DNA of 45,643 nt, taken from NCBI RefSeq assembly GCF_003334355.1, contig NZ_QOWP01000030.1. One strand, 5' to 3'. The stretch is from Escherichia coli (GTDB taxonomy: Bacteria; Pseudomonadota; Gammaproteobacteria; Enterobacterales; Enterobacteriaceae). A model generated the notes under the pieces. The model was not told where the DNA came from, did no database searches, and saw only the letters and a list, made by a program, of their open reading frames with translations. Made by a program: the position numbers and the translations under genes. This document shows positions 3,600 through 12,368 of the stretch, piece after piece (the stretch's first letter is position 1; the number at the start of each line of letters is the position of its first letter).

Positions 3600-4109
3600 A
3601 TGAATCAGCAACGATTTGATGACAGCACCCTAATCCGTATCTTCGCCCTTCATGAGTTACATCGACTGAAAGAACATGGCTTAACGCGCGGGGCGCTTCT
3701 CGATTATCACAGCCGCTATAAACTCGTCTTTCTGGCGCATTCTCAGCCGGAGTACCGCAAACTTGGCCCGTTCGTGGCTGATATTCACCAGTGGCAAAAT
3801 CTGGATGATTTTTACAACCAGTACTACCAACGCGTAATTGTTTTGCTTTCTCATCCCGCCAACCCGCGCGATCACACCAACGTTTTGATGCACGTTCAGG
3901 GTTATTTTCGCCCGCATATTGATTCCACAGAACGCCAGCAGTTGGCGGCGCTTATCGACAGTTATCGCCGTGGCGAGCAACCACTTCTTGCGCCGCTGAT
4001 GCGTATCAAACACTATATGGCGCTTTATCCTGACGCCTGGCTTTCAGGGCAGCGTTATTTCGAACTTTGGCCGCGTGTGATTAACTTGCGCCATTCAGGA
4101 GTTTTATGA
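3600..4109 (+). CDS. ybgA: DUF1722-family protein of unknown function, co-transcribed with photolyase
   Basis: 169-aa ORF with AGGAG 5 nt upstream of the ATG; its stop overlaps the phr start (ATGA). Confidence 0.9.
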   Translation: MNQQRFDDSTLIRIFALHELHRLKEHGLTRGALLDYHSRYKLVFLAHSQPEYRKLGPFVADIHQWQNLDDFYNQYYQRVIVLLSHPANPRDHTNVLMHVQGYFRPHIDSTERQQLAALIDSYRRGEQPLLAPLMRIKHYMALYPDAWLSGQRYFELWPRVINLRHSGVL

Positions 4110-5524
4110 TTACCCATCTGGTCTGGTTTCGCCAGGATTTACGTCTGCACGATAATCTCGCACTGGCTGCCGCCTGCCGCAATTCGTCTGCACGCGTGCT
4201 GGCGTTATATATCGCTACACCACGCCAGTGGGCGACGCATAACATGTCGCCGCGTCAGGCTGAACTTATCAATGCTCAACTGAATGGGCTACAAATAGCG
4301 CTTGCGGAAAAAGGTATTCCTTTATTGTTCCGTGAAGTGGATGACTTTGTCGCCAGTGTCGAAATAGTTAAACAGGTGTGCGCGGAAAACAGCGTTACCC
4401 ACCTGTTTTATAACTATCAGTATGAAGTGAATGAGCGGGCGCGGGATGTGGAAGTTGAAAGAGCGCTGCGTAACGTGGTGTGTGAAGGATTTGATGACAG
4501 CGTGATCCTGCCGCCTGGCGCGGTGATGACCGGTAATCACGAGATGTACAAAGTCTTTACGCCTTTTAAGAATGCCTGGCTGAAACGGCTGCGGGAAGGG
4601 ATGCCGGAGTGTGTCGCTGCGCCAAAAGTTCGTAGTAGCGGATCGATAGAGCCCGCGCCATCCATTACGCTGAATTATCCTCGTCAGTCTTTCGATACTG
4701 CGCATTTCCCGGTGGAAGAAAAAGCGGCGATTGCGCAATTACGCCAGTTTTGCCAGAACGGTGCCGGAGAATATGACCAACAACGAGATTTTCCGGCAGT
4801 GGAAGGCACCAGTCGTTTGTCCACCAGCCTGGCAACGGGCGGGTTATCGCCTCGCCAGTGTTTGCATCGCTTGTTGGCGGAACAGCCGCAGGCGCTGGAC
4901 GGTGGGGCCGGTAGTGTCTGGCTTAGTGAGCTGATCTGGCGCGAGTTCTACCGTCACCTGATAACGTATCACCCCTCGTTGTGTAAACATCGTCCATTTA
5001 TTGCCTGGACGGATCGTGTACAGTGGCAGAGCAATCCCGCACATTTACAGGCCTGGCAGGAAGGCAAAACGGGATACCCGATTGTTGATGCCGCTATGCG
5101 TCAGCTTAACAGCACTGGCTGGATGCATAACAGGCTACGGATGATTACAGCCAGTTTTCTGGTGAAAGATTTATTGATCGACTGGCGCGAAGGCGAGCGA
5201 TATTTCATGTCGCAGCTGATTGATGGTGATTTGGCAGCCAATAACGGTGGCTGGCAGTGGGCCGCTTCAACCGGAACCGATGCAGCGCCGTATTTTCGTA
5301 TTTTCAACCCGACAACCCAGGGCGAGAAATTTGATCATGAGGGCGAGTTTATCCGCCAGTGGCTACCGGAACTGCGCGATGTGCCAGGGAAAGTGGTGCA
5401 TGAGCCGTGGAAGTGGGCGCAGAAAGCAGGTGTGACGCTGGATTATCCGCAACCGATAGTCGAGCACAAAGAAGCGAGAGTACAAACGTTGGCAGCGTAT
5501 GAGGCGGCGCGGAAGGGGAAATAA
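4106..5524 (+). CDS. phr: Deoxyribodipyrimidine photolyase (CPD photolyase)
   Basis: 472-aa ORF; translation recognised as E. coli photolyase, including the FAD-binding C-terminal region WREFYRH...NGGWQW. Confidence 0.95.
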   Translation: MITHLVWFRQDLRLHDNLALAAACRNSSARVLALYIATPRQWATHNMSPRQAELINAQLNGLQIALAEKGIPLLFREVDDFVASVEIVKQVCAENSVTHLFYNYQYEVNERARDVEVERALRNVVCEGFDDSVILPPGAVMTGNHEMYKVFTPFKNAWLKRLREGMPECVAAPKVRSSGSIEPAPSITLNYPRQSFDTAHFPVEEKAAIAQLRQFCQNGAGEYDQQRDFPAVEGTSRLSTSLATGGLSPRQCLHRLLAEQPQALDGGAGSVWLSELIWREFYRHLITYHPSLCKHRPFIAWTDRVQWQSNPAHLQAWQEGKTGYPIVDAAMRQLNSTGWMHNRLRMITASFLVKDLLIDWREGERYFMSQLIDGDLAANNGGWQWAASTGTDAAPYFRIFNPTTQGEKFDHEGEFIRQWLPELRDVPGKVVHEPWKWAQKAGVTLDYPQPIVEHKEARVQTLAAYEAARKGK

Positions 5525-5552
5525 CAGACGCGTCAGGCAATCGAGCCCAGAT

Positions 5553-5658
5553 GCCGGATGCGGCGTGAACGCCTTATCCAGCCTACAAATTTGTGCAAAT
5601 TCAATAAATTGCAGGAAATACGTAGGCCTGATAAGACGCGTCAAGCGTCGCATCAGGC
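5553..5658. repeat. Pair of REP (BIME-type) palindromic elements in opposite orientation between the convergent phr and dtpD
   Basis: gccggatgcggcgtgaacgccttatccagcctaca and gtaggcctgataagacgcgtcaagcgtcgcatcaggc match the canonical REP pattern. Confidence 0.8.
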
Positions 5659-5673
5659 ATCGGTGCTGGCCTA

Positions 5674-7338
<1,665 letters not shown>

Positions 7339-7425
7339 TTAATATGTCAAAAGATTGGCTATCGACGAACAGGCGAGGTAACGCTATGTTAACGGTGTAG
7401 CTATCAGAATACGGAAGGCGCGAAG

Positions 7426-8169
7426 ATGAAAAACACCGAACTGGAACAACTGATTAACGAAAAACTGAACAGCGCGGCGATTAGTGATTACGCGCCGAAT
7501 GGTTTGCAGGTGGAAGGCAAAGAGACGGTGCAAAAAATTGTTACCGGTGTCACCGCCAGCCAGGCTTTGCTCGATGAGGCAGTGCGTCTGGGCGCGGATG
7601 CGGTCATTGTGCATCATGGCTACTTCTGGAAAGGAGAGTCTCCGGTCATTCGCGGAATGAAGCGTAACCGTTTAAAAACGTTGCTGGCGAATGATATCAA
7701 CCTGTATGGCTGGCATTTGCCGCTTGACGCACATCCTGAGCTGGGCAATAACGCACAGCTGGCGGCGTTACTGGGGATCACGGTCATGGGCGAAATTGAG
7801 CCGTTGGTGCCGTGGGGCGAACTGACCATGCCTGTGCCGGGACTGGAGCTGGCTTCCTGGATTGAAGCGCGTCTGGGACGTAAGCCGTTATGGTGTGGCG
7901 ATACCGGACCTGAGGTGGTCCAGCGCGTCGCCTGGTGCACGGGCGGCGGGCAAAGTTTTATCGATAGCGCCGCGCGTTTTGGCGTGGATGCTTTTATTAC
8001 TGGCGAAGTTTCTGAACAGACCATTCATTCAGCCCGCGAGCAGGGATTGCATTTTTATGCTGCAGGTCACCATGCCACTGAACGTGGTGGTATTCGCGCA
8101 TTGAGCGAGTGGCTGAATGAAAATACCGATCTTGATGTGACCTTTATTGATATTCCTAATCCTGCATAA
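7426..8169 (+). CDS. ybgI: Nif3-family metal-binding protein (GTP cyclohydrolase 1 type 2 homolog)
   Basis: 247-aa ORF with GGAAGG ribosome-binding site; translation recognised as YbgI. Confidence 0.92.
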   Translation: MKNTELEQLINEKLNSAAISDYAPNGLQVEGKETVQKIVTGVTASQALLDEAVRLGADAVIVHHGYFWKGESPVIRGMKRNRLKTLLANDINLYGWHLPLDAHPELGNNAQLAALLGITVMGEIEPLVPWGELTMPVPGLELASWIEARLGRKPLWCGDTGPEVVQRVAWCTGGGQSFIDSAARFGVDAFITGEVSEQTIHSAREQGLHFYAAGHHATERGGIRALSEWLNENTDLDVTFIDIPNPA

Positions 8170-8191
8170 CGAATAATCAGAGGGATCGAAA

Positions 8192-8848
8192 GTGCAACGA
8201 GCGCGTTGTTATCTGATAGGTGAAACGGCGGTAGTGCTGGAACTGGAACCGCCGGTGACGCTGGCTAGCCAGAAACGGATCTGGCGACTGGCGCAGCGTC
8301 TGGTGGATATGCCGAATGTGGTTGAAGCCATTCCCGGCATGAACAATATTACGGTGATTTTGCGTAATCCTGAGTCGCTGGCGCTGGATGCCATAGAGCG
8401 TTTGCAACGCTGGTGGGAGGAGAGCGAGGCCCTGGAACCTGAGTCTCGCTTTATTGAAATTCCGGTGGTTTACGGTGGTGCAGGCGGACCGGATTTGGCG
8501 GTGGTCGCGGCGCATTGCGGGTTGAGCGAAAAACAGGTTGTTGAATTGCACTCCTCCGTGGAATACGTGGTCTGGTTTTTAGGTTTTCAACCGGGCTTCC
8601 CGTATCTCGGGAGTTTGCCGGAACAACTACACACGCCACGGCGCGCTGAACCGCGCTTACTCGTTCCGGCAGGTTCTGTCGGGATCGGCGGGCCGCAGAC
8701 TGGTGTTTATCCGCTGGCAACGCCGGGTGGCTGGCAGTTGATTGGTCATACCTCACTCAGCCTGTTTGATCCGGCGCGTGACGAACCCATCTTATTACGT
8801 CCGGGAGACAGCGTGCGCTTTGTACCGCAGAAGGAGGGAGTATGCTGA
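8192..8848 (+). CDS. pxpB: 5-oxoprolinase subunit B
   Basis: 218-aa ORF with GTG start; overlaps pxpC by 7 nt. Recognised as YbgJ. Confidence 0.9.
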
Positions 8849-9774
8849 AGATTATTCGTGCGGGCATGTATACCACTGTGCAGGATGGCGGTCGTCACGG
8901 TTTTCGCCAGTCGGGTATCAGCCACTGCGGCGCACTGGATATGCCCGCGTTACGCATTGCTAACCTACTGGTGGGTAATGACGCCAATGCCCCCGCGCTG
9001 GAGATCACGCTCGGTCAGTTAACTGTTGAGTTCGAAACTGATGGGTGGTTTGCTCTGACGGGTGCCGGTTGCGAAGCGCGGCTGGATGATAATGCCGTCT
9101 GGACCGGCTGGCGATTGCCGATGAAAGCAGGCCAGCGTTTAACGCTTAAACGCCCGCAGCACGGGATGCGCAGTTATCTGGCGGTCGCGGGTGGTATTGA
9201 TGTTCCGCCGGTAATGGGGTCATGCAGCACCGATCTCAACGTGGGGATTGGCGGGCTGGAAGGCCGTTTACTGAAGGATGGTGACCGACTCCCGATTGGC
9301 AAATCGAAGCATGATTTTATGGAAGCGCAGGGCGTTAAACAGCTGCTGTGGGGCAACCGCATTCGCGCCTTGCCGGGGCCGGAATATCATGAGTTCGATC
9401 GCGCCTCGCAGGATGCATTCTGGCGTTCGCCCTGGCAGCTTAGCCCGCAAAGTAACCGCATGGGCTATCGCTTACAGGGGCAAATTTTAAAACGCACCAC
9501 CGATCGCGAACTGTTATCTCACGGTTTGTTACCGGGCGTGGTGCAGGTGCCACATAACGGGCAGCCGATTGTGTTGATGAACGACGCACAGACCACCGGT
9601 GGTTACCCGCGTATTGCCTGCATCATTGAGGCTGATATGTACCATCTTGCGCAAATTCCGCTCGGTCAGCCGATTCATTTTGTCCAGTGTTCACTGGAAG
9701 AGGCACTGAAAGCGCGGCAAGATCAGCAACGTTATTTTGAACAATTAGCGTGGCGGCTGCACAATGAAAATTGA
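8842..9774 (+). CDS. pxpC: 5-oxoprolinase subunit C
   Basis: 310-aa ORF; overlaps pxpB and pxpA. Recognised as YbgK. Confidence 0.92.
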
Positions 9775-10498
9775 CCTGAACGCCGATCTGGGCGAAGGCT
9801 GCGCCAGCGACGCAGAGCTATTAACGCTGGTTTCCTCTGCCAATATTGCCTGTGGATTTCATGCAGGCGATGCGCAAATCATGCAGGCTTGCGTGCGTGA
9901 AGCAATAAAAAATGGTGTCGCGATTGGCGCTCACCCGAGTTTTCCCGACAGGGAAAATTTTGGTCGCAGCGCCATGCAGCTGCCGCCAGAAACCGTTTAC
10001 GCCCAGACGCTGTATCAAATTGGCGCGCTGGCAACGATTGCCCGTGCGCAAGGCGGCGTAATGCGTCATGTCAAACCGCACGGCATGTTGTACAACCAGG
10101 CGGCGAAAGAAGCACAACTGGCAGCCGCCATCGCCAGAGCGGTATACGCTTGCGATCCAGCATTGGTTCTCGTCGGGCTGGCAGGAAGCGAGCTGATTCG
10201 TGCAGGCAAGCAATATGGCCTGACAACGCGCGAGGAAGTGTTTGCCGATCGCGGTTATCAGGCTGACGGCTCGCTGGTGCCGCGAAGCCAGCCAGGCGCG
10301 TTGATTGAAAACGAAGAACAGGCGCTGGCGCAAACGCTGGAGATGGTGCAACACGGCAGAGTCAAAAGTATCACCGGCGAATGGGCAACGGTCACGGCGC
10401 AAACGGTCTGCCTGCATGGCGACGGCGAGCACGCACTGGCATTCGCCCGCCGACTACGCTCTACATTTGCCGAAAAGGGGATTGTTGTCGCAGCATAA
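9764..10498 (+). CDS. pxpA: 5-oxoprolinase subunit A (LamB/YcsF family)
   Basis: 244-aa ORF overlapping pxpC by 11 nt. Recognised as YbgL. Confidence 0.92.
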
Positions 10499-10533
10499 CC
10501 CCGCTTAATAAAGAATGAAAAAAGGATATCACC

Positions 10534-11325
10534 ATGCCTGAAGGCCCGGAGATCCGCCGTGCAGCGGATAACCTGGAGGCGGCGATCAAAGGCAAACCAC
10601 TAACTGATGTCTGGTTTGCCTTCCCGCAGTTAAAATCTTATCAATCACCACTTATCGGTCAACACGTTACCCATGTGGAAACGCGTGGTAAGGCGTTGTT
10701 AACTCATTTTTCCAACGACTTAACGCTCTACAGCCATAATCAGCTTTACGGCGTTTGGCGCGTGGTTGATACCGGCGAAGAGCCGCAGACCACGCGAGTA
10801 TTGCGGGTAAAACTGCAAACGGTTGACAAAACCATTCTGCTTTATAGCGCCTCGGATATTGAGATGTTGACCCCGGAACAACTGACCACGCATCCGTTTT
10901 TACAACGCGTTGGTCCCGATGTGCTGGATCCGAATCTGACGCCGGAGGTGGTAAAGGAACGATTATTGTCGCCGCGCTTTCGTAACCGTCAGTTTGCAGG
11001 ATTACTGCTCGATCAGGCGTTTCTGGCTGGGCTTGGCAATTATTTGCGGGTGGAGATCCTCTGGCAGGTTGGGGTGACTGGAAATCATAAAGCGAAAGAT
11101 CTCAATGCGGCGCAACTGGATGCACTCGCACACGCGTTACTGGAGATTCCTCGGTTTTCTTACGCTACGCGGGGGCAGGTGGATGAGAATAAGCATCATG
11201 GGGCGCTGTTTCGCTTTAAGGTTTTTCATCGTGATGGCGAACTGTGCGAACGCTGTGGCGGCATCATTGAGAAAACCACGTTGTCCTCGCGCCCGTTTTA
11301 CTGGTGTCCAGGCTGCCAGCACTAG
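10534..11325 (+). CDS. nei: Endonuclease VIII (DNA glycosylase/AP lyase, Fpg/Nei family)
   Basis: 263-aa ORF starting MPEGPEIRR (N-terminal Pro and Glu catalytic residues) and ending with a zinc finger CERCGG...CPGCQ. Confidence 0.95.
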
Positions 11326-12368
11326 GCCGACCGCTTCGGCGCATAGGTTGAAATAAACCGCGCAATGGCTGGCCCCGTCAGCAAAATACTGAACAGGCGC
11401 AGGGTTTGCATCGCCATAATAAGCGCCATATCGGCATTGCTCCCTGCGGCGATGACCGCCACGGTATCAAGCCCGCCGGGACTGGTGGCGAGGTAGGCAG
11501 TCATAAAATCAATATGCATAAACCGGGTCAGTCCCCACGCCATACCTGCACAAATAGCCAGCAGAGCAAAAATCGACAGCAGGATTTGCGGTAGTGGGCG
11601 TAGTGCCCGCAGTAAGATTTGTTTATCGAAACCAAGACCAATCCGCCAGCCAATTGCCATATACGCCATCGCCAGCAGCCATTCCGGTAGTTCGATGGTG
11701 ATGAGCTGACCAGACTGGAGCACTGCGCCCGCCAGCATCGGGATGAGCATCGTGCCGGAAGGAAGACGCAGCAGGCATCCCACTGTACCGGCAACGACCG
11801 CGAGCAAAATAGTAAGCAGGAGATTAATGCTCACTGGCGGGAACCAGACGATATGCTGGTTAACCGCTTCAGCGTTATCGCCCAGCATCATGCGGGTGAC
11901 CAGAACAGCGGCCCCCGCGACGAACAGCACTCGCAGATATTGCATAAACGCCACCAGGCGAATATCTGCGCCGTAATCTTGCGCCATAGCGACCATTGCC
12001 GCCGCGCCGCCAGGAGAGGAGCCCCAGGCACCGGTATTTCCAGGCAATGAGCTATAGCGCACCAATAACCAACCCACAATGGCGCTGGAAAGCAGCGTTA
12101 CCAGTAAAATTGCAAGCACGATCGGCCAGTTGACAGCCAGGGTGGTGAGAATCGAACCAGTGAGGTTTTGCGCAATCATGCAGCCAAGAATGGCCTGGGC
12201 GGCGAGAAAAGCAGAGCGGGGAAGTTGCAGAGTAATTCCGCGCATACTAAAGATGATCCCGGCAATCATCGGCCCAAGTAATAGCGCCGCCGGGAGATGT
12301 ACCGCGAGGAAACCAATAGAAAGGAGAAGTGATAGCACACATAACATTCCCCACTGCAAAACTGGCAT
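11322..12368 (-). CDS. abrB: AbrB-family membrane protein (putative regulator/transporter)
   Basis: Polytopic membrane ORF. I place the start at the ATG at 12368 (MPVLQWGML..., 348 aa) rather than the 374-codon maximum at 12446. Its 3' end overlaps nei by 4 nt. Confidence 0.85.

Follow-up and report, generated by a model that had tools for sequence, protein, structure and literature searches.

The three subunits of 5-oxoprolinase are encoded in Escherichia coli by pxpB, pxpC and pxpA, genes whose ends overlap, and directly upstream on the same strand lies ybgI, whose product (NIF3/DUF34 family) is a conserved protein without agreed function. Do the overlaps couple the translation of the three subunits? 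Is ybgI transcribed together with them? And does YbgI then belong to the enzyme, or does it travel along in the same transcript? The stretch that holds the locus, called the window here, is 45,643 nucleotides long (contig NZ_QOWP01000030.1 of RefSeq assembly GCF_003334355.1) and positions are counted from its first letter. The literature and RefSeq already describe the genes with their functions, the operon and the PxpB–PxpC structure. Our overall reading, which we hold with good confidence, is that ybgI-pxpB-pxpC-pxpA-nei form a core operon, that the pxp subunits are coupled in translation, and that ybgI is co-transcribed but lies outside the enzyme.

Genes, boundaries and the transcription unit

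The operon features described below lie on the plus strand. ybgI (7426-8169, ATG to TAA, 247 aa), the first operon gene, is followed after a 22-nt spacer (8170-8191), which holds the pxpB Shine-Dalgarno sequence AGAGGGA, by pxpB (ybgJ; 8192-8848, GTG to TGA, 5-oxoprolinase subunit B, 218 aa). Then come pxpC (ybgK; 8842-9774, ATG to TGA, subunit C, 310 aa) and pxpA (ybgL; 9764-10498, ATG to TAA, subunit A of the LamB/YcsF family, 244 aa). pxpB and pxpC share 7 nt (8842-8848), ATGCTGA, made of the pxpC start codon and the pxpB stop codon, and pxpC and pxpA share 11 nt (9764-9774), ATGAAAATTGA. The earlier note gave these three distances exactly, as the open reading frame list and the sequence confirm, and it named the four genes correctly, all four proteins scoring above curated NCBIfam cut-offs. 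YbgI is assigned to the NIF3/DUF34 family by NF008064 (531.6 bits, cut-off 414) and TIGR00486 (276.9, cut-off 130.55), PxpB is matched by TIGR00370 (355.6 bits, cut-off 145.55), PxpC by NF045499 (593.5 bits, cut-off 500, aligned over 1-306 of 306) and PxpA by NF003812 over its full length (512 bits, cut-off 378). By these family-model matches all three PxpABC subunit families are present. PxpA also matches PDB 1XW8, and PxpB and PxpC match chains B and A of 5DUD over their full length (E-values 5.7e-147 and 5.6e-213), a single entry in which both subunits of the PxpB–PxpC complex were crystallised together. The start codons are secure, since the annotated start of each of the four genes is the earliest possible one in its open reading frame, the NCBIfam alignments begin at residue 1 (PxpC, PxpA) or 9 (PxpB), and the 5DUD chains YbgJ and YbgK are full length at 218 and 310 residues. 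The pxpB start codon is GTG or TTG at every related locus.

What does the enzyme do? 5-Oxoproline forms spontaneously and the Pxp enzyme recycles it to glutamate (PMC13274462), in an ATP-dependent reaction that requires all three subunits (Niehaus 2017, as reported in PMC13274462). The PxpB–PxpC complex is thought to phosphorylate 5-oxoproline, leaving ring opening and product dephosphorylation to PxpA.

The arrangement is shared throughout the species. E. coli K-12 MG1655 has the same genes, order, strand, gaps, overlaps and start codons (b0710-b0714), strain OW1E2 is 100% identical to the window over 7100-11400, and RefSeq gives identical boundaries in a 100%-identical genome and in MG1655. 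All but one of 5426 complete E. coli genomes show 95-100% identity to the window, and 5423 of them carry at least 80% of positions 7100-11400 at 95% identity or more. The ybgI-pxpBCA-nei stretch is E. coli core genome.

But where does the unit end? The earlier note described four genes, and ybgI-pxpBCA do stand together, but nei was left out. This gene (10534-11325) encodes endonuclease VIII (NF007763, 500.3 bits, cut-off 252), lies directly downstream of pxpA on the same strand after 35 nt, and shares 4 nt at its stop codon with the convergent abrB. The unit comprises five genes, nei being the last, with junctions of 22, -7, -11 and 35 nt, and a sequence scan found no terminator-like site in the 22-nt or the 35-nt gap. 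The title of Gifford & Wallace 2000 names nei as the terminal gene of an operon and an operon table groups nei, ybgI, ybgJ, ybgK and ybgL; our literature search returned no paper text describing the nei operon. Upstream of the five genes, the divergent dtpD-ybgI intergenic region (7156-7425, 270 nt) alone is non-coding over any sizeable length, and it is the place for the operon promoter or promoters. Two sigma-70 sites for ybgI were located from ChIP peaks at 742,030 and 741,874 in old MG1655 numbering, and one of them was confirmed by primer extension (PMC3798280); we infer that they correspond to about 7406 and 7250 in the window. A simple consensus scan of 7000-11600 found no plus-strand sigma-70 site that matched at 9 or more of 12 positions, so the published ybgI promoters fall below the threshold of that scan, and by eye no placement of their -10 and -35 boxes was convincing. 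Rfam gave no known RNA family within 7156-11325. Whether ybgI shares the functional unit had been left open; as to co-transcription, the Gifford & Wallace 2000 title, the operon table and the mapped sigma-70 sites upstream of ybgI answer the question, and ybgI-pxpBCA-nei would be one co-transcribed unit. Transcription would start at the sigma-70 promoter or promoters of the dtpD-ybgI region and run through nei.

YbgI and its neighbours in related bacteria

YbgI matches PDB 1NMO across its full length, and Pfam PF01784 is recorded on its homologues. It shares the fold family and the dinuclear metal ligands with 1NMO, SA1388, MJ0927/HcgD and B. subtilis YqfO, and judged by its length (247 vs 370 aa) and a partial match it is without the PII-like domain that is inserted in SA1388 and YqfO. 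We take the ligands, in the numbering of YbgI and after the 1NMO paper, to be His63, His64, Asp101, His215 and Glu219. Among 38 diverse homologues (35-58% identity) the residues H64, D101, H215 and E219 never vary and H63 is kept in at least 90%, so that the site appears intact. RefSeq calls the protein 'radiation resistance protein YbgI' and the NF008064 label reads type 2 GTP cyclohydrolase I; the latter is rejected here, as ybgI is reported not to complement folE and the name is argued to be a propagated error (Reed et al. 2021). The same authors put forward a role for DUF34/NIF3 proteins as metal chaperones or insertases. Two further mentions of 'ybgI' in the literature were dropped, one being a typing error for ygbI and the other an unrelated localisation screen.

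Which genes keep company with ybgI? We surveyed the 80 best-scoring ybgI loci, all from Gammaproteobacteria, using a profile built from a 10-sequence YbgI alignment (the 38-sequence alignment was too divergent) and counting pxpB/C within 7 kb of ybgI. The pair is found at only 27 of the 80 loci, confined to Enterobacteriaceae, Erwiniaceae, Pectobacteriaceae, Yersiniaceae and Hafniaceae; among these 80 loci, pxp does not lie beside ybgI in Morganellaceae, Pasteurellaceae, Vibrionaceae, Alteromonadales, Aeromonadales or Orbaceae, even at E<=1. At each of the 16 Enterobacteriaceae loci, and likewise in E. coli, ybgI and pxpB are separated by 11-43 nt. The distance grows to 113-156 nt in Erwiniaceae and Pectobacteriaceae and to about 417 nt in Yersinia, and it reaches 1787 nt in Rahnella and 4232 nt in Hafnia. 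Outside Enterobacteriaceae the wide spacers have hairpins after the ybgI stop codon, and the same simple scan found no sigma-70 site in those of Pectobacterium and Yersinia. In Vibrionaceae the neighbours of ybgI, gltA among them, are on the opposite strand. The photolyase gene phr is found on the same strand as ybgI at 15 Enterobacterales loci, with gaps of -11 to +34 nt and overlap in five of them. By this spacing the tighter partner of ybgI in Enterobacterales is phr, not pxp. pxpBCA have companions of their own, namely DUF969, DUF979 and pyroglutamyl peptidase I, encoded 3' of pxpA in many relatives. The supplement of Reed et al. 2021 ranks COG2049/1984/1540 first among gammaproteobacterial neighbours of DUF34, with COG0266 (Nei) and COG0415 (Phr) in fourth and fifth place; the top rank probably reflects the number of sequenced Enterobacteriaceae genomes.

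These comparisons suggest a history. The placement of ybgI between pgm and gltA would be ancestral in Gammaproteobacteria, and pxpBCA would have become its neighbour only within Enterobacterales, where phr is the tight upstream partner. In Enterobacteriaceae the ybgI-pxpB spacer would then have collapsed to 11-43 nt, and in Escherichia, Citrobacter and Kluyvera the insertion of dtpD between phr and ybgI would have made ybgI the first gene of a composite operon.

If phr is the partner, could YbgI itself act in DNA repair? The proposal would be that YbgI is tied in function to the flanking DNA-damage genes phr and nei, pxpBCA having been inserted into a phr-ybgI-nei repair module. To our knowledge, YbgI has no biochemical link to repair. 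The directly upstream position of phr fits the proposal, as do the RefSeq name, the ranks of Nei and Phr in the DUF34 supplement and one locus (L016) that reads phr-ybgI-nei without the pxp genes; but the linkage to phr is likewise limited to Enterobacterales (elsewhere phr lies near ybgI at 2 of about 46 loci, with a divergent gene in between), and nei is often found 0.7-2.6 kb beyond pxpA in relatives, with other genes intervening. Moreover, the reported single-stranded-DNA binding later "came under scrutiny" (Reed et al. 2021). We regard a tie of this kind as rather unlikely. An extended version, in which ybgI was originally the partner of phr in a ybgA-phr-ybgI operon, has a direct role with Phr and Nei in the repair of light or oxidation damage, which the 'radiation resistance' of YbgI would reflect, and reached the E. 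coli ybgI-pxpBCA operon by a secondary fusion, is improbable when taken whole. Its two halves differ in standing. The evolutionary half (ybgI coming from ybgA-phr-ybgI, with the E. coli operon secondary through dtpD insertion and spacer collapse) is fairly well supported, and the functional half, a repair role for YbgI beside Phr and Nei, is speculation.

Overlaps between the subunit genes

How well are the overlaps kept among relatives? The pxpB/pxpC overlap is 7 nt at 28 of 29 Enterobacterales loci, even where protein identity falls to 53%, and it stays while the pxpB stop codon alternates between TGA and TAA. The pxpC/pxpA overlap varies more, with 11 nt at 15 of 23 loci and 14, 8, 4 or 1 nt at the rest, apart from one 37-nt gap. 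The stop/start overlap that is a hallmark of coupled pairs is present at both junctions and conserved among relatives. Part of this retention could come from conserved terminal residues of the proteins, as the pxpC stop codon falls within the conserved Ile/Val-Asp codons of pxpA.

The ribosome-binding sites of the three genes are of unequal strength. The pxpB Shine-Dalgarno sequence gives an anti-SD duplex of -6.3 kcal/mol, and the 11-43 nt ybgI-pxpB spacers of the 16 Enterobacteriaceae loci share a conserved G-rich motif. That of pxpC, GAAGGAGGG (8830-8838), sits within the final codons of pxpB and has the strongest duplex among the five operon genes (-12.2 kcal/mol). pxpA has the weakest (-4.8 kcal/mol), and its start region is predicted to be the least accessible, with P(unpaired) of 0.25 vs a local mean of 0.43. 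The pxpB codons that make up the pxpC site are Lys AAG at 23 of 23 loci and Glu GAG at 21 of 22, where the gene-body background is 33% and 48%, which points to selection on this site at synonymous positions. The proteins themselves are also found joined. In Thermus thermophilus TTHA0988 (PDB 3OEP) a PxpB-like part is followed by a PxpC-like part in one polypeptide, where E. coli has two genes with a 7-nt overlap, and the carboxyltransferase region of urea carboxylase/amidolyase has the two parts fused in the same order (TIGR02712 matches).

How would coupling operate at these junctions? Ribosomes ending pxpB would unfold GAAGGAGGG and the AUG located 4 nt before the pxpB stop, or would re-initiate there. 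Those ending pxpC would terminate 8 nt past the pxpA AUG and then re-initiate at it. Coupling along pxpB-pxpC-pxpA would keep the output of the subunits matched. The mechanism is one that we infer from the features of the nucleotide sequence. The earlier note had taken the overlaps to imply coupling of the three subunits; what stands is that they are conserved, that the internal Shine-Dalgarno site appears selected, that the pxpA site is weak, and that PxpB and PxpC share a crystal and are fused in Thermus. Coupling itself is plausible, and to read it from the overlaps was reasonable.

Could the overlaps instead be incidental to compact packing, each pxp gene being translated, uncoupled, from its own ribosome-binding site? 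Overlaps are indeed frequent in the window, where 9 of about 30 adjacent same-strand coding pairs overlap (by 1, 1, 1, 4, 4, 4, 7, 7 and 11 nt) and sdhC/sdhD likewise share 7 nt; the pxp overlaps are real and conserved yet, by this frequency, ordinary and unremarkable. The variable pxpC/pxpA length also fits the uncoupled explanation, and the very strong site that pxpC owns could support independent initiation. Set against this are the exact 7 nt retained at great protein divergence despite the stop-codon change, a pxpA start that has the weakest Shine-Dalgarno site and more structure around it than any other start in the operon, and the fact that all three products belong to a single enzyme, with PxpB and PxpC sharing a crystal and being fused in Thermus. 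On balance we find uncoupled translation improbable, and favour coupling of pxpB-pxpC-pxpA.

YbgI and the 5-oxoprolinase

Is ybgI then part of the 5-oxoprolinase unit in function? Clusters in other bacteria offer a comparison. Those of B. subtilis (pxpA-ycsG ... kipI-kipA), C. glutamicum (pxpTABC, pxpR) and C. difficile (pxpAGBC) have the same three subunit families, and genetic evidence shows that 5-oxoproline use or detoxification depends on them (PMC13274462). They begin with pxpA, unlike the E. coli pxpBCA, and carry an APC-superfamily transporter (YcsG, PxpT or PxpG), to which C. glutamicum adds the regulator PxpR; E. coli is without both, its pxp genes being flanked instead by ybgI on the upstream and nei on the downstream side. 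Closer to E. coli are the pxpBCA-DUF969-DUF979-pcp clusters of other Enterobacterales such as Citrobacter, Pantoea, Pectobacterium and Yersinia, with the same pxpB-pxpC-pxpA order and 7-nt overlap. In Enterobacterales such clusters usually have the 11-nt overlap too, and ybgI upstream, which outside Enterobacteriaceae is at least 113 nt away. Past pxpA they encode two membrane proteins and pyroglutamyl peptidase I, all three missing in E. coli. And which genes accompany the DUF34 family elsewhere? COG2384, which we take to be TrmK, is one. It and COG1579, not pxp, are the commonest DUF34 neighbours in other bacteria (Reed et al. 2021).

That YbgI serves the enzyme as an accessory, for example a metal insertase or chaperone for PxpA or PxpBC, forming one functional unit with it, would suit the short Enterobacteriaceae spacer, the intact metal site, the proposed family role and the listing of PxpB, PxpC and PxpA (Mg2+, Mn2+) among metal-dependent DUF34 neighbours (Reed et al. 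2021), but it is very unlikely given that 53 of the 80 gammaproteobacterial ybgI loci have no adjacent pxp, that beyond Enterobacteriaceae 113-4232 nt with hairpins intervene, that L016 keeps its phr-ybgI-nei order without pxp, that no NIF3 gene is mentioned in the pxp clusters of B. subtilis, C. glutamicum and C. difficile (PMC13274462), and that a 425-aa 'YbgI-PxpB fusion' (P0002) is a frameshifted assembly artefact from a contig with a split pxpC and further frame errors. NIF3+Pxp 'fusions' from Trichuris and Beauveria appear in the DUF34 supplement (Reed et al. 2021) and look like bacterial contamination. A tie between YbgI and PxpABC that is specific to one lineage may be compatible with the missing conserved linkage. 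Taken together, gene neighbourhoods suggest that ybgI is probably not within the 5-oxoprolinase unit in function; it looks like a co-transcribed passenger and not an enzyme component, and would be functionally independent of it.

As a discovery the locus carries little weight, and its value, a modest one, lies in the operon example and in the partner of YbgI. It illustrates why co-transcription should not imply shared function, as ybgI heads the E. coli operon only through what would be lineage-specific rearrangements. The tight partner of ybgI in Enterobacterales, photolyase and not 5-oxoprolinase, guides which YbgI phenotypes to test first.

Gene boundaries and operon extent

The genes ybgI (7426–8169), pxpB (8192–8848, with a GTG start), pxpC (8842–9774) and pxpA (9764–10498) all lie on the plus strand, and the listed ORFs and the underlying sequence both bear out the junctions described in the earlier note: a 22-nt gap between ybgI and pxpB, a 7-nt pxpB/pxpC overlap (ATGCTGA) and an 11-nt pxpC/pxpA overlap (ATGAAAATTGA). 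The same boundaries appear in the RefSeq annotations of MG1655 and of OW1E2, an E. coli strain 100% identical over 7100–11400. Are the overlaps real? Each of the four starts is the earliest possible in its ORF, and family-model alignments begin at residue 1 of PxpC and PxpA and at residue 9 of PxpB, so the overlaps are real rather than annotation artefacts. Nor are they unusual: about 30 adjacent same-strand CDS pairs occur in the window and 9 of them overlap, including sdhC/sdhD (7 nt). The pxpB start is non-ATG in all loci examined (window 8192; L003–L034 and L056, the L-numbers denoting loci with YbgI relatives or copies of the window, in their own coordinates); Enterobacteriaceae and Yersiniaceae use GTG, and Erwiniaceae, Pectobacteriaceae and Hafnia use TTG.

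The proteins score above the curated NCBIfam cut-offs for YbgI (NF008064 and TIGR00486), PxpB (TIGR00370), PxpC (NF045499), PxpA (NF003812) and endonuclease VIII (NF007763), the product of nei, which follows pxpA. Structures have been solved for YbgI (1NMO), for YbgJ and YbgK (PxpB and PxpC under their older names; two chains of 5DUD) and for YbgL (PxpA; 1XW8). At least 80% of 7100–11400 is present in 5423 of 5426 complete E. coli genomes, each at 95% identity or more, placing the stretch in the core genome. The locus is K-12 b0710–b0714; it is already known, and everything observed in the earlier note is already in databases.

That note counted four genes. All four are present, but the operon has five, with nei on the same strand beginning 35 nt past the end of pxpA. 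Neither the ybgI–pxpB gap nor the pxpA–nei gap holds a terminator-like site. Gifford and Wallace reportedly carried out RT-PCR across the operon junctions, in effect the experiment suggested in the earlier note. The title of their paper (Gifford & Wallace, Nucleic Acids Res 2000) names nei as the terminal gene of a transcribed operon, an operon table lists nei, ybgI, ybgJ, ybgK and ybgL as one unit (PMC4448311), and the five-gene operon is thus already described. Two sigma-70 binding events are assigned to ybgI, one of them with primer-extension confirmation (PMC3798280); converted through comparison with MG1655, their coordinates would put the sites some 20 and 176 nt ahead of the ybgI start codon, within the 270-nt dtpD–ybgI intergenic region. 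At the 3' end, nei shares 4 nt with the convergent abrB (11322–11325; CTAG, two stop codons with common bases), which leaves no intergenic space for a terminator.

Probable translational linkage of pxpBCA, and its companions

How closely are the three subunits tied at translation? Across Enterobacterales loci in which identity falls as low as 54% for PxpB and 53% for PxpC, 28 of 29 retain the 7-nt pxpB/pxpC overlap, which was measured in relatives by tblastn and so independently of ORF calling. The one that does not is a frameshifted copy from Yersinia aldovae, and the overlap stays intact where the pxpB stop codon switches between TGA and TAA. By the same measurement, 15 of 23 loci share an 11-nt pxpC/pxpA overlap; in the rest it is 14, 8, 4 or 1 nt, with one 37-nt gap. 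The Shine-Dalgarno (SD) site of pxpC, GAAGGAGGG (8830–8838), lies within the final codons of pxpB. Its Lys codon is AAG in 23/23 loci, against a background of 33% across the gene bodies, and its Glu codon is GAG in 21/22, against 48%, in counts that take related genomes as independent, without phylogenetic correction; this bias points to selection on the internal SD. Among the five operon genes, pxpC has the strongest predicted anti-SD pairing (−12.2 kcal/mol) and pxpA the weakest (−4.8), and the pxpA start region is also predicted to be the least accessible; for these two reasons pxpA would be the gene likeliest to need ribosomes coming from pxpC. Independent initiation of pxpC from its own strong SD could also occur. 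PxpB and PxpC crystallise together (5DUD), Thermus TTHA0988 joins PxpB- and PxpC-like parts in one polypeptide in the order of the E. coli genes, and PxpA, PxpB and PxpC are subunits of one enzyme (PMC13274462). Together these make four indirect lines of evidence for the coupling implied by the earlier note, and a translationally linked three-subunit enzyme is the best-supported picture of pxpBCA.

In many relatives, pxpA is followed by genes for DUF969 and DUF979 membrane proteins and pyroglutamyl peptidase I, or Pcp (for example L003 10070–12500; L025/L026 10575–12900; L027 10300–12910). These genes lie between pxpA and nei, or 3' of pxpA where nei is absent. Pyroglutamyl peptidase I frees 5-oxoproline from peptides. 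In function the trio extends the pxp unit coherently, away from ybgI, and is plausibly an uptake/release module for 5-oxoproline. Unlike other Enterobacterales, E. coli lacks all three genes, with just the 35 nt from pxpA to nei, and has either lost or never gained them. Compared with the pxp clusters studied in B. subtilis, C. glutamicum and C. difficile (PMC13274462), that of E. coli has the order B-C-A and no linked transporter or regulator, and includes ybgI and nei.

ybgI among its neighbours

The 80 best-scoring loci with YbgI relatives (52–97% identity, all Gammaproteobacteria) were searched for the genes that neighbour ybgI in E. coli, out to 7 kb in either direction; ORFs were called by a simple longest-ORF method that at times picked antisense ORFs. 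pxpB and pxpC are near ybgI in 27 of the 80, all from Enterobacteriaceae, Erwiniaceae, Pectobacteriaceae, Yersiniaceae or Hafniaceae; no pxp gene was found within 7 kb (E ≤ 1) in the Photorhabdus, Providencia, Pasteurellaceae, Vibrionaceae, Alteromonadales, Aeromonadales and Orbaceae loci. Clustering of flanking ORFs gave a conserved backbone, with SeqA (confirmed) and a gene we take to be pgm on one side of ybgI, and gltA (confirmed) and presumably sdhCDAB on the other. In Vibrionaceae ybgI stands alone, being bracketed by opposite-strand genes. The ybgI–pxpB spacer is 11–43 nt in Enterobacteriaceae only; it is 113–156 nt in Erwiniaceae and Pectobacteriaceae, about 417 in Yersinia, 1787 in Rahnella and 4232 in Hafnia. 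Past the ybgI stop codon come GC-rich hairpins, and in Yersinia the spacer has a long AT-rich stretch. From the backbone, the position of ybgI looks ancestral and pxpBCA looks to have joined it as a neighbour within Enterobacterales.

Six loci have ybgI-pxpB-pxpC and no pxpA in the flank even at E ≤ 1 (L009, L013, L015, L017, L031, L033); in the first three, nei comes directly after pxpC, at 9–20 nt. In Klebsiella sp. BIGb0407 (L016 7001–8617) the order is phr-ybgI-nei; 87 nt separate ybgI from nei, and the locus has no pxp genes. A 425-aa 'YbgI-PxpB fusion' recorded in the protein database (L002 445–1722, GCA_902839185.1) proved an artefact of several contig frame errors, with pxpC split in two and pxpA shortened.

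The photolyase gene phr lies on the same strand directly upstream of ybgI in 15 Enterobacterales loci (L005, L010–L012, L014–L017, L019–L022, L027, L031, L033), at −11 to +34 nt from phr end to ybgI start and overlapping in 5; phr is a tighter partner of ybgI than pxpBCA. Only in the Escherichia/Citrobacter/Kluyvera group does the opposite-strand dtpD intervene (window 5674–7155; phr, 4106–5524). In Yersiniaceae and Hafniaceae an additional gene of about 346 aa lies between phr and ybgI (L025, L026, L029, L034, L039); its product has an HxHxDH-like motif (SHAHLDH) and no NCBIfam match. The convergent phr/dtpD spacer (5525–5673) contains an Rfam match to the sRNA ES036 (CssrF) at 5587–5629 (+; 75.1 bits, gathering score 37.6), adjoining REP-like palindromes that include an inverted repeat at 5626–5658. 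Further afield, RefSeq treats mngA as a pseudogene with a frameshift in the reverse-complement OW1E2 copy (L084 13205–15110; about window 30534–32439), and its annotation of OW1E2 has several fragments of ISAs1 transposase and one of RHS upstream of ybgA-phr.

What, then, is the role of ybgI? The Reed et al. 2021 supplement lists PxpB, PxpC, PxpA, Nei, Phr and five further COGs as gammaproteobacterial COG0327 neighbours, so the neighbourhood is already recorded. YbgI may work with the flanking DNA-damage genes, a reading that agrees with the phr linkage and with the RefSeq product name 'radiation resistance protein'; no biochemical support for such a role was found, and it seems unlikely. The five further COGs are presumably YbgA, Pcp, DUF523, DUF979 and DUF969. 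That YbgI is a true accessory of 5-oxoprolinase, for instance in metal loading, appears more doubtful still. Reed et al. 2021 take the neighbourhood as support for a metal-chaperone role. The best-supported reading is a composite housekeeping operon, in which pxpBCA would encode a translationally linked three-subunit enzyme, and ybgI upstream and nei downstream would be co-transcribed neighbours, each with its own function.
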